Assembly (NCBI RefSeq): GCF_003334305.1
Contig: NZ_QOWS01000011.1
Source of the DNA: Escherichia coli
GTDB lineage: Bacteria; Pseudomonadota; Gammaproteobacteria; Enterobacterales; Enterobacteriaceae
Reading direction: 5' to 3' (one strand)
DNA: 64,000 nucleotides
Below are positions 34,758 to 53,306 of this stretch, piece by piece. Both the position numbers and the translations under genes were made by a program. Below the pieces are notes generated by a model. The model searched no databases. It was not told where the DNA came from and saw only the letters and a program-made list of their open reading frames with translations. The first letter of the stretch is position 1. Each line of letters opens with the position of its first letter.

Positions 34758-34774
34758 TTGGCTCCTCTGACTGG
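34758..34774. repeat. 17-bp att core at the tRNA-Asn 3' end (single copy)
   Basis: ttggctcctctgactgg overlaps the tRNA 3' end; no second copy found by eye between 3300 and 4320. Confidence 0.6.
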
Positions 34775-34834
34775 ACTCGAACCAGTGACATACGGATTAA
34801 CAGTCCGCCGTTCTACCGACTGAACTACAGAGGA
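34759..34834 (-). tRNA. asnT: tRNA-Asn (GUU)
   Basis: 76-nt minus-strand sequence reads TCCTCTGTAGTTCAGTCGGTAGAACGGCGGACTGTTAATCCGTATGTCACTGGTTCGAGTCCAGTCAGAGGAGCCA; the copy next to mtfA is asnT in K-12. Confidence 0.9.
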
Positions 34835-35825: not shown

Positions 35826-35915
35826 GGAGAGATGCCGGAGCGGCTGAACGGACCGGTCTCGAAAACCGGAGTAGGGGCAACTCTACCGGGGGTTCAAATC
35901 CCCCTCTCTCCGCCA
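35826..35915 (+). tRNA. serU: tRNA-Ser
   Basis: 90-nt sequence GGAGAGATGCCGGAGCGGCTGAACGGACCGGTCTCGAAAACCGGAGTAGGGGCAACTCTACCGGGGGTTCAAATCCCCCTCTCTCCGCCA with long variable arm. Confidence 0.9.
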
Positions 35916-42775: not shown

Positions 42776-43284
42776 AGTGTATTCCTTATTGTTGCTTAGT
42801 TAGGGTAGTCACTATATTTGCGACTGAGCTGGTCGCTATTTTTAACCAGGCTGGAAAATTGAGTCAATATATCGAAAGCGGTAGTCGGCGGGTGTAAGTA
42901 TGTAATGATGATGCTGCACTGGTGTTGAATATTATTCACGCCAAATTTTCCTTATTGAGTAACGTCGTCGCAAGTGGCCTCAATGATTTTAGACCATTAT
43001 CAGAGGTACGGGGTGGCGGGGAGAGATTTAGTGCTGTGGAATATTGTGGTGCTGATGAATATTTATATCGCGGATTGGTAGAGAAAAAGCTTATTTCATG
43101 CACTATTTTTGCAAATATTTCTATATGGGAAGCGTGTTTGTTACGGATTAATTCATAAAGAAATGCATTTGGGTGTTAGCTTGAAGAGTAGCTGGTTGAT
43201 GTTATTGTGCCAGGAGGGGCAGGGTAAGGTGCTGTATCGATATGCTTCGGCAATTGCGTGTGCCGCAGATGGAGATGAAATGCC

Positions 43285-43324
43285 AATAAAAAAGCCTGAG
43301 TTCGATGAGGGACGAACTCAGGCT
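43285..43324 (-). terminator. yedS rho-independent terminator
   Basis: 12-bp perfect stem agcctgagttcg/cgaactcaggct with 8-nt loop, followed on the minus strand by UUUUUUAUU; ~45 nt after the yedS stop. Confidence 0.7.
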
Positions 43325-43366: not shown

Positions 43367-44482
43367 TTAGAACTGGTAGACGATACCAACTGCAAACTGG
43401 TCATCAGCTGCTGCGCCAGTAATGGCGGCGTCATCTTTATCCAGCATGTTGAATTTGTATGCAGTATAAACGTTCATGTTCTTATTAAAGTAGTACCAGG
43501 TACCAACTTCAATGTAGTTCACACGGTCAGCGTCAACATATCTATGTCCAGGTACCCCTTTGATATCTTTACCTTTAGAGTACACATAACCTAAGGACGG
43601 ACGCAGACCAAAGTCGAATTGATACTGAACAACCGCTTCAAAGTTCTGGGTTTCATTGATAAGTTGATCACGCATTATTGTATTGCCTTCTCGATCGGCA
43701 ACACCTGTATCAATAGAACCCGGAGTCATATTACGAGTTTCGCCGTACATTACAGCTGCGTAGACATTGTTCGCGTCATACTTTGCAGCCAATGACCACA
43801 GTTCAGCATTTGAACCGTTTCCATCGGCAACTTGATCGTTGGTGCGATCAGATTTGCTATATGCACCAACGATACCAAAACCATTGATGTTATAGTCTAC
43901 AGACAACGCATAGCCGTCACCATTTTGTTTCTTAGTGCTACGGTTGCTGTTTTTGCCTTGGTACTGAATCGCAAAATCAAGACCATCAACCAGGCCAAAG
44001 AAATCATAGTTACGGTAGGTTGCAACACCGTTGGTACGACCATTCATGAAGTTGTCAGCGGAAGCCCAGGAATCGCCACCCCATTCAACTAACATATCGG
44101 TATAAGCTGCGGCATCATAAGCAACACCGTAGTTACGGCCATAGTCAAATGATCCTAACTCGTTATATTTCAAACCGGCGAAGGTTAAACGGGTTTTTTC
44201 CTGGTTTTCACCTTCGGGCTTGCTGGCGTCGAGGTTGTATTCAAACTGACCAAAACCAGTCAGTTCGCTGGTGATTTGGGTTTCACCTTTAACACCGAAA
44301 CGAGCATAGGAGGTATCTTCGTTTTCGCTGTTATTATCATCAGTATTTGACCAGATGCGTTCGCCAACCATCTTGCCGTAGAAATCAACTTTATTGCCAT
44401 CTTTATTATAAATTTCAGCCGCATTTGCTGCGCCAGCAACTAATAACGCCGGGACCAGCATTGCCAGAACTTTTCTTTTCAT
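43367..44482 (-). CDS. yedS: OmpC/OmpF-family outer-membrane porin (intact)
   Basis: 371 aa from [21 protein letters not shown]; porin-like beta-strand periodicity and C-terminal ...AVGIVYQF. Confidence 0.85.
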
Positions 44483-44793
44483 TATGTATTCCCTTGTGAT
44501 TATAATCTTCATGAATATATCAATAAGTGCCGTTATCCAAAAAAAAGCACATTTGGATACTATTCTATGAAGTTCATTTTATTTTAAGGATTACATGTAA
44601 CAAATGTATTTAAAAGATTTCAAAGTGTTTCTAATATATTTAATATAATTCAGGATTATGAATTCTGAATATAAACATTCATGAAGATTATAAATGTATA
44701 TCAATAAGTTATGAGTTGAACTGAAAGATAGGGAGTATCAATGATCGTTGCGCTAAACGGCTGGTGTGATCACGCGCACATTAATGAAGGCAT

Positions 44794-44884
44794 AAAAAAA
44801 AGCCGGCATCATGCCGGCCCAAAAAATATAAACAAGACGATAAAAGGCTAATAACGGAGGCATCATGACACAGAATAATAAAAA
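44794..44884 (-). ncRNA. rseX: Small RNA in the yedS-yedR spacer, probably RseX; ends approximate
   Basis: Minus-strand hairpin GCCGGC-AUGAU-GCCGGC followed by U8 with no CDS upstream; TACAAT-like -10 box (44896-44891) about 90 nt upstream; contains an anti-Shine-Dalgarno stretch (CAUGAUGCCUCC). RseX maps to this spacer in K-12 (from memory). Confidence 0.5.
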
Positions 44885-45030
44885 GGTATAATTGTAATCA
44901 GTGCTAATATATTGATTGAATGAATTAATAAAGCCGATATCAAAGATAAATAAAATCGCTCAAAACGATTTTTCTTGTATTCACTGCCGTTGCGCAAAAA
45001 TTATCTATTTGTTCAAAAAATGATTGAGTC

Positions 45031-45414
45031 TTGACTGGCTCATTCAATGTGGAAAAATGTGATTTTTATCACATAATAGTACTAAGTCTGAATTTTCCGG
45101 GTTATCTCAAAATGGAATACGGTTCGACAAAGATGGAAGAGAGACTCTCTCGCAGCCCTGGTGGCAAACTGGCTTTGTGGGCTTTCTATACATGGTGTGG
45201 CTATTTCGTCTGGGCAATGGCGCGTTACATCTGGGTGATGAGCCGGATCCCCGATGCCCCCGTGTCGGGATTTGAAAGCGATTTAGGCTCTACCGCGGGA
45301 AAGTGGTTAGGGGCACTGGTCGGATTTTTATTTATGGCTCTGGTCGGGGCATTGTTAGGCAGCATTGCCTGGTACACCCGACCTCGTCCCGCACGTAGCA
45401 GACGCTATGAATAA
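45031..45414 (+). CDS. yedR: Small inner-membrane protein
   Basis: 127-aa ORF with two hydrophobic segments; alternative starts at GTG 45049 or ATG 45112. Confidence 0.75.
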   Translation: MTGSFNVEKCDFYHIIVLSLNFPGYLKMEYGSTKMEERLSRSPGGKLALWAFYTWCGYFVWAMARYIWVMSRIPDAPVSGFESDLGSTAGKWLGALVGFLFMALVGALLGSIAWYTRPRPARSRRYE

Positions 45415-53219: not shown

Positions 53220-53306
53220 AACACATCAGATTTCCTGGTGTAACGAATTTTTTAAGTGCTTCTTGCTTAAGCAAGTTTCATCCCGACCCCCTCAGGGTCG
53301 GGATTT
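53220..53306 (+). ncRNA. dsrA: DsrA small regulatory RNA
   Basis: AACACATCAGATTTCCTGGTGTAACGAATTTTTTAAGTGCTTCTTGCTTAAGCAAGTTTCATCCCGACCCCCTCAGGGTCGGGATTT matches DsrA as I remember it; three stem-loops with a terminal hairpin plus T-run on the plus strand and no plus-strand CDS upstream. Confidence 0.85.

Follow-up and report, generated by a model that had tools for sequence, protein, structure and literature searches.

The window analysed here, a stretch of 64,000 nucleotides of Escherichia coli DNA (RefSeq assembly GCF_003334305.1, contig NZ_QOWS01000011.1), carries the gene order hchA - yedS(-) - rseX(-) - drpB(+) - yedJ - dcm, which is also the order found in K-12. The rseX gene occupies positions 44794..44884 on the minus strand, with the 5' end of its 91-nt RNA at 44884 and the 3' end at 44794; the minus-strand sequence from 44884 to 44794 is UUUUUAUUAUUCUGUGUCAUGAUGCCUCCGUUAUUAGCCUUUUAUCGUCUUGUUUAUAUUUUUUGGGCCGGCAUGAUGCCGGCUUUUUUUU. 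It is placed in the spacer between drpB (formerly yedR) and yedS and is co-oriented with yedS, as in K-12. The downstream neighbour, yedS (43367..44482, minus strand), appears in the open reading frame list as an intact general porin gene of 371 aa. Its product matches the NCBIfam models for OmpF, OmpC and PhoE, in every case below the equivalog cut-off, and the PGAP annotation of a strain that is identical over a 901-nt query around the site calls it 'porin'. On the other side lies drpB (K-12 b1963; 45112..45414, plus strand), a divergent cell-division gene recognized by the NCBIfam DrpB model NF038392 with a score of 151.6 bits (cut-off 50). No plausible minus-strand coding sequence precedes rseX, in keeping with the preliminary description of this region, which had remarked on a terminator with no gene in front of it.

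The start of drpB is drawn differently in different records: in the strain that matches the 901-nt query without a difference, PGAP uses the third candidate (45133..45414, 93 aa), and K-12 now has the 100-aa form. Experimental mapping has located the drpB promoter between the former start GTG-1 and ATG-22 (PMC7648144), and a promoter-like sequence on the plus strand at 45050..45077 (TGGAAA-16-CATAAT, 9/12) falls inside that interval.

The name RseX had been put forward as probable for this spacer, and both database comparison and alignment bear it out. When the whole window was scanned with Rfam 15 at the gathering thresholds, the rseX model RF01401 matched from 44884 to 44795 on the minus strand with 99.0 bits, twice the gathering score of 50 (E 1.9e-12), over model positions 1-94 of 94 and without truncation; no other Rfam model matched at 44794..44884. 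The curated ncRNA gene rseX (b4603) of K-12 MG1655 (NC_000913.3, 2033649..2033739), which lies in the corresponding yedR-yedS spacer, aligns with the window at 90 of 91 positions and has the same ends, and the extent first proposed for the element, 44794..44884, is exactly that of the K-12 feature (44795..44884 in the Rfam placement). The sole difference within the gene is at nt 26, which is C in the window (44859) and U in K-12, and one further position differs in the 46 nt upstream. The two loci thus share the length of 91 nt, the ends, the drpB(yedR)-yedS spacer, the terminator and the -10 region, and they differ in the U26C substitution in the loop of the 5' hairpin and in the state of yedS, intact in the window and a pseudogene in K-12.

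What places the locus beyond chance is homology, in the form of the 99-bit covariance match, the identity at 90 of 91 positions and the conserved synteny, rather than any pattern scan. We have hardly any doubt that it is E. coli rseX, a gene with a weak promoter and a strong terminator whose product is described in K-12 as a 91-nt, Hfq-dependent repressor acting in trans and silenced by H-NS. Gene and location are both already known, and the single-base variant seen here is a common natural one.

The signals that delimit the transcript can be read directly from the sequence. The TACAAT-like -10 box that had been noticed upstream is present at 44896..44891 on the minus strand and, with a 6-nt spacer, would set the +1 position at 44884; in K-12 the 5' end of RseX was determined by 5' RACE, according to the citation of Douchin 2006 in PMC8313858. 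The accompanying -35 element, TTCAAT at 44920..44915, is weak (3/6, 18-nt spacing), and because it is so poor the rseX promoter was not listed by the promoter scan. The -10 hexamer itself differs among Escherichia species, where TAAAAT, TACCAT, TTCAAT and TACGAT are found.

At the other end, a Rho-independent terminator occupies 44794..44820 on the minus strand and has the form GGGCCGGCA-UGA-UGCCGGCUU, with the stem at 44820..44800 and the U8 tract at 44801..44794. The stem comprises nine pairs in the terminator scan, six of them G-C, closed by a 3-nt loop, and the GCCGGC arm is followed by eight U residues, just as first described. The hairpin is present in both the minimum free energy (MFE) and the centroid folds, and the G-C core of its stem is invariant in 13 Escherichia sequences. 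It was the only terminator-like site on either strand of 44300..45400; since shuffles of this region yield 0.9 such sites on average, the terminator scan alone is not significant. A U-rich stretch upstream of a terminator, here nt 51-64, is together with that terminator the usual Hfq-binding module. The RNA has the usual features of an Hfq ligand, namely the terminator hairpin, the U8 tail and the upstream U-rich tract; binding in the window is a prediction, and the role of Hfq comes from published work (PMC8313858).

A terminator lying ahead of a co-oriented gene could in principle belong to a leader, and we considered whether the RNA is the 5' leader or attenuator of yedS, in which the hairpin stops transcription and read-through is conditional. 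The shared orientation, the distance of only 311 nt from the terminator end to the yedS start codon, the intact state of yedS in this strain and the AT-richness of the whole spacer, which is probably silenced as a unit, are what such an arrangement would show. The terminator, however, is strong (9-bp stem, six G-C pairs, U8), and three promoter-like sites on the minus strand at 44669..44576, between rseX and yedS, mean that yedS could be transcribed without the rseX promoter. Plasmid-borne RseX, moreover, acts in trans in K-12, a strain whose yedS is a pseudogene (PMC8313858). We therefore regard a leader function as very improbable. Regulation of yedS by pairing with RseX was also considered and set aside: the most favourable duplex with the yedS leader reaches -13.5 kcal/mol, a value equalled by 17 of 60 shuffled sRNAs.

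A coding function is more doubtful still. An ATG-initiated open reading frame of 37 codons does exist on the minus strand (44866..44753), so that translation from the AUG at RNA nt 19 might give a small hydrophobic protein beginning MMPPLLAFYRLVYIFWAG. This frame, however, runs across the terminator, leaving the 91-nt RNA without a stop codon, and its AUG has no Shine-Dalgarno sequence before it. Indels of 1 nt and 2 nt in the U-run at RNA nt 55-59 shift the frame in other Escherichia alleles, and hydrophobicity would result from translating any U-rich sequence. With the frame crossing the terminator here and broken by indels elsewhere, we rejected the small protein, which is scarcely credible beside an untranslated RseX RNA.

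Of 5426 complete E. coli genomes, about 4877 carry the 91-nt rseX sequence; 241 have exactly the window allele and 1623 exactly that of K-12. The 901-nt query around the site, to which E. coli strain A7 is identical throughout, is present in 4910 of the same 5426. About 10% of these genomes (roughly 550 of 5426) gave no rseX match; two of the matches are plasmid-borne, and one genome carries the gene twice. For comparison across species, one genome per species was scanned with a sequence pattern and the matches were confirmed with RF01401. This gave six Escherichia genomes with rseX (E. albertii, E. whittamii, two further Escherichia species and two labelled E. coli), scoring 87-95 bits. The remaining pattern matches were discarded, about 30 being chance matches in unrelated phyla and one a Pluralibacter contig that the rseX model did not match. 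The literature records an RseX homologue in Salmonella (PMC3632133, PMC1804206); it was not recovered by the cross-species scan, whose pattern required exact matches.

Aligned with one another, the Escherichia sequences divide the RNA into constant and variable parts. The single-stranded stretch CGUUAUUAGCCUUUUAUCGUCUU (44834..44856, minus strand; RNA nt 29-51) is invariant in 13 sequences apart from one U31A change, and nt 10-23 are nearly so, with changes at nt 12 and nt 21 only. The variable positions are nt 6-9 and, most of all, loop nt 24-28, which read GCCUC, GCUUC, AACUC, AGCCC, AACCG, AACGA or ACUUA. The search pattern itself imposed part of the cross-species invariance, that of nt 33-54; among the E. 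coli alleles, picked by megablast rank alone, the same invariance is seen. Constancy of nt 29-51 and the terminator, set against variation in the loop, the 5' end and the flanking spacer, is the pattern expected of purifying selection on the RNA.

The fold of the 5' half is less secure than that of the 3' end. The Rfam consensus structure and the MFE fold both contain a weak 5' hairpin (44847..44871, minus strand; RNA nt 14-38), with an inner stem of nt 19-23 paired with nt 30-34, and this hairpin is missing from the centroid fold. Covariation was sought for both helices in the 13 Escherichia sequences and none was found, the stems being either invariant or altered only by pair-breaking changes, of which the 5' hairpin has three cells. 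The RNA as a whole is no more stable than its shuffles (z -1.13). With no covariation, pairs broken in some sequences and no place in the centroid fold, the 5' hairpin is a tentative feature; the terminator is solid.

It is in the loop of this hairpin, nt 24-29, that the window departs from K-12, with GCCUCC against GCUUCC. The preliminary description had singled out the anti-Shine-Dalgarno stretch CAUGAUGCCUCC, which is indeed there, at RNA nt 18-29 (44867..44856), and had suggested that it could pair with porin ribosome-binding sites. Its CCUCC motif is, however, specific to certain alleles and sits in the variable loop, K-12 having CUUCC, so that it is not the conserved element. The motif is nonetheless widespread: with 30-nt queries and exact matches only, loop alleles containing CCUCC were found in at least 2098 of the 5426 complete E. 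coli genomes. Over nt 21-29, the window allele GAUGCCUCC occurs in 1157 of these genomes, CAUGCCUCC in 941 and the K-12 allele GAUGCUUCC in 1725. The C at position 26 completes a perfect anti-Shine-Dalgarno tetranucleotide beside the conserved stretch.

We examined the pairing proposal by taking RseX nt 1-64 in windows of 22 nt and computing, for each against the ompA and ompC leaders of K-12, the hybridization energy together with the opening energies of both partners, a purely thermodynamic calculation. These windows replaced a global duplexfold on the whole leaders, which had returned unrealistically long, loop-ridden duplexes. Porin pairing as such is predicted for both mRNAs, with the best sites falling in the conserved stretch of nt 30-50, just downstream of the segment first suspected. 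For ompA, the best predicted site is the same for both alleles and pairs RseX nt 37-50 (GCCUUUUAUCGUCU) with positions -21..-7, spanning the GAGG Shine-Dalgarno sequence. For ompC, the predicted site involves nt 30-44 and positions -14..+1 with the K-12 allele, and nt 25-43 and positions -28..-9 with the window allele, where CCUC comes to lie opposite GAGG. The hybridization energies of the window allele are -19.3 kcal/mol for ompA, better than 58 of 60 shuffled sRNAs, and -19.0 kcal/mol for ompC, better than all 60. Between the alleles, the predicted energy is about 2 kcal/mol lower for that of the window, in which a G-U pair against GAGG becomes a G-C pair.

These calculations suggest that nt 29-51 are probably the region that pairs with the ompA and ompC ribosome-binding sites. 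The conserved linker, and not the loop, is then likely to be the core of target recognition in this model, with C26 extending the duplex. The published prediction for ompA likewise lies in the interior of RseX, away from the 5' end that serves for fimB and ihfB (PMC8313858), and the two placements agree in outline.

RseX first came to notice as a computational prediction and was later recovered as a multicopy suppressor that rescues the otherwise lethal deletion of rseP (PMC8313858, PMC7648144). It is a 91-nt primary transcript that reduces expression of ompA and ompC, an effect that requires Hfq (PMC8313858, PMC7648144), and fimB and ihfB are further validated targets, both repressed (PMC8313858). 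The repression of ompA and ompC was demonstrated for the K-12 allele only (PMC8313858). All of the experiments concern that allele, and a very common natural allele differs from it at one loop position beside the pairing region; we would expect the window allele to behave as the K-12 allele does.

Combining these data with the anatomy of the locus, we envisage that a weak sigma-70 promoter would start the RNA at 44884 on the minus strand and that the intrinsic terminator would stop it near 44794, releasing a free-standing 91-nt RNA. Hfq would bind the U-rich 3' end, and the single-stranded segment of about nt 30-50 would pair across the Shine-Dalgarno region of ompA and ompC, other parts of RseX pairing with fimB and ihfB. 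Such pairing would block translation and cut down the mRNA, so that fewer outer-membrane proteins are made and there is less need for the sigma-E envelope stress pathway. In its AT-rich spacer, rseX would normally be kept silent by H-NS and StpA. The identity of the gene, its anatomy and synteny, the conservation pattern and the in-silico pairing come from the present analysis; the transcription start, the Hfq dependence, the targets and the H-NS silencing in this scheme are taken from the literature.

In this mode of action RseX resembles MicA, RybB, MicC, MicF and OmrA/B, which are likewise short, free-standing, Hfq-dependent repressors of porins with a Rho-independent terminator and a U tail. 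Their pairing sites on omp mRNAs, too, lie at the ribosome-binding site or close to it; ompA is a target of MicA as well, and ompC of MicC and RybB (PMC1804206). They are nevertheless unrelated to RseX in sequence, and the stretch is matched by the rseX model alone. RseX also differs from these sRNAs in its control, since it belongs to neither the sigma-E nor the OmpR regulon and is silenced by H-NS (PMC8313858; PMC1804206).

The silencing raises the question of whether the gene does anything in wild-type cells. Native RseX becomes detectable in K-12 only once hns is deleted (PMC8313858), and in Salmonella no RseX signal was seen (PMC1804206). The H-NS occupancy and de-repression at rseX are K-12 results (PMC8313858); in the window, GC content is 27-33% across 44350..45100 against about 45-55% in the flanks, a composition that would fit H-NS silencing. 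One could see rseX as a relic without function in the wild type, permanently silenced by H-NS and kept by linkage, a notion with which the failure to detect the RNA in wild-type E. coli or Salmonella (PMC8313858; PMC1804206), the weak -35 element and the absence of the locus from about 10% of complete E. coli genomes would all accord. Yet nt 29-51 and the terminator are conserved across Escherichia species amid variable surroundings, and a transposon study reported RseX to be required for competitive growth of S. Typhimurium (PMC3632133). We consider a functionless relic improbable, and the question bears on physiological relevance, not on the identity of the locus as rseX.

A second promoter-like element overlaps the start of the gene on the opposite strand. 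The sequence ATGACA-16-TATAAT at 44865..44892 (plus strand) is a near-consensus sigma-70-like site (11/12), and neither strand of the 64-kb window has another that scores 11/12 or more; about 6.7% of random spacers comparable in size and composition have one. Two base pairs are shared between its -10 hexamer and that of rseX, and its -35 hexamer is complementary to RseX nt 15-20, a segment that does not vary across Escherichia. As far as its sequence goes, the site might be a divergent or competing promoter. It was rejected as the drpB promoter, the mapped promoter of that gene lying some 160-220 bp farther downstream (PMC7648144). Two speculations about the locus, to both of which we give rather long odds, are that the loop alleles (CCUCC, CUUCC and others) tune the strength or target choice of RseX and, separately, that the plus-strand site competes with the rseX promoter and so helps to silence it.

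RseX already has an Rfam family and a K-12 gene entry, so the significance of the present locus beyond its correct annotation is slight. The feature is missing from the automated RefSeq (PGAP) record of every non-K-12 E. coli inspected, and the curated K-12 record alone annotates it. Since automated annotation leaves the gene unmarked, scans of raw sequence would keep rediscovering it.

Other RNA genes are also apparent in the window. A full-length match to RF00014 at 53220..53306 (plus strand, 102.5 bits) marks the small RNA DsrA, and the Rfam tRNA model identifies tRNA genes at 34762..34834 (minus strand, 72.6 bits) and 35826..35912 (plus strand, 57.0 bits), the latter with a long variable arm; asn tRNA genes lie near this region on the K-12 map (PMC7648144, Table 1). 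Finally, the hchA-yedS spacer at 42850..43300, which contains no obvious gene, has a strong plus-strand skew of G over C (GC skew up to 0.45).
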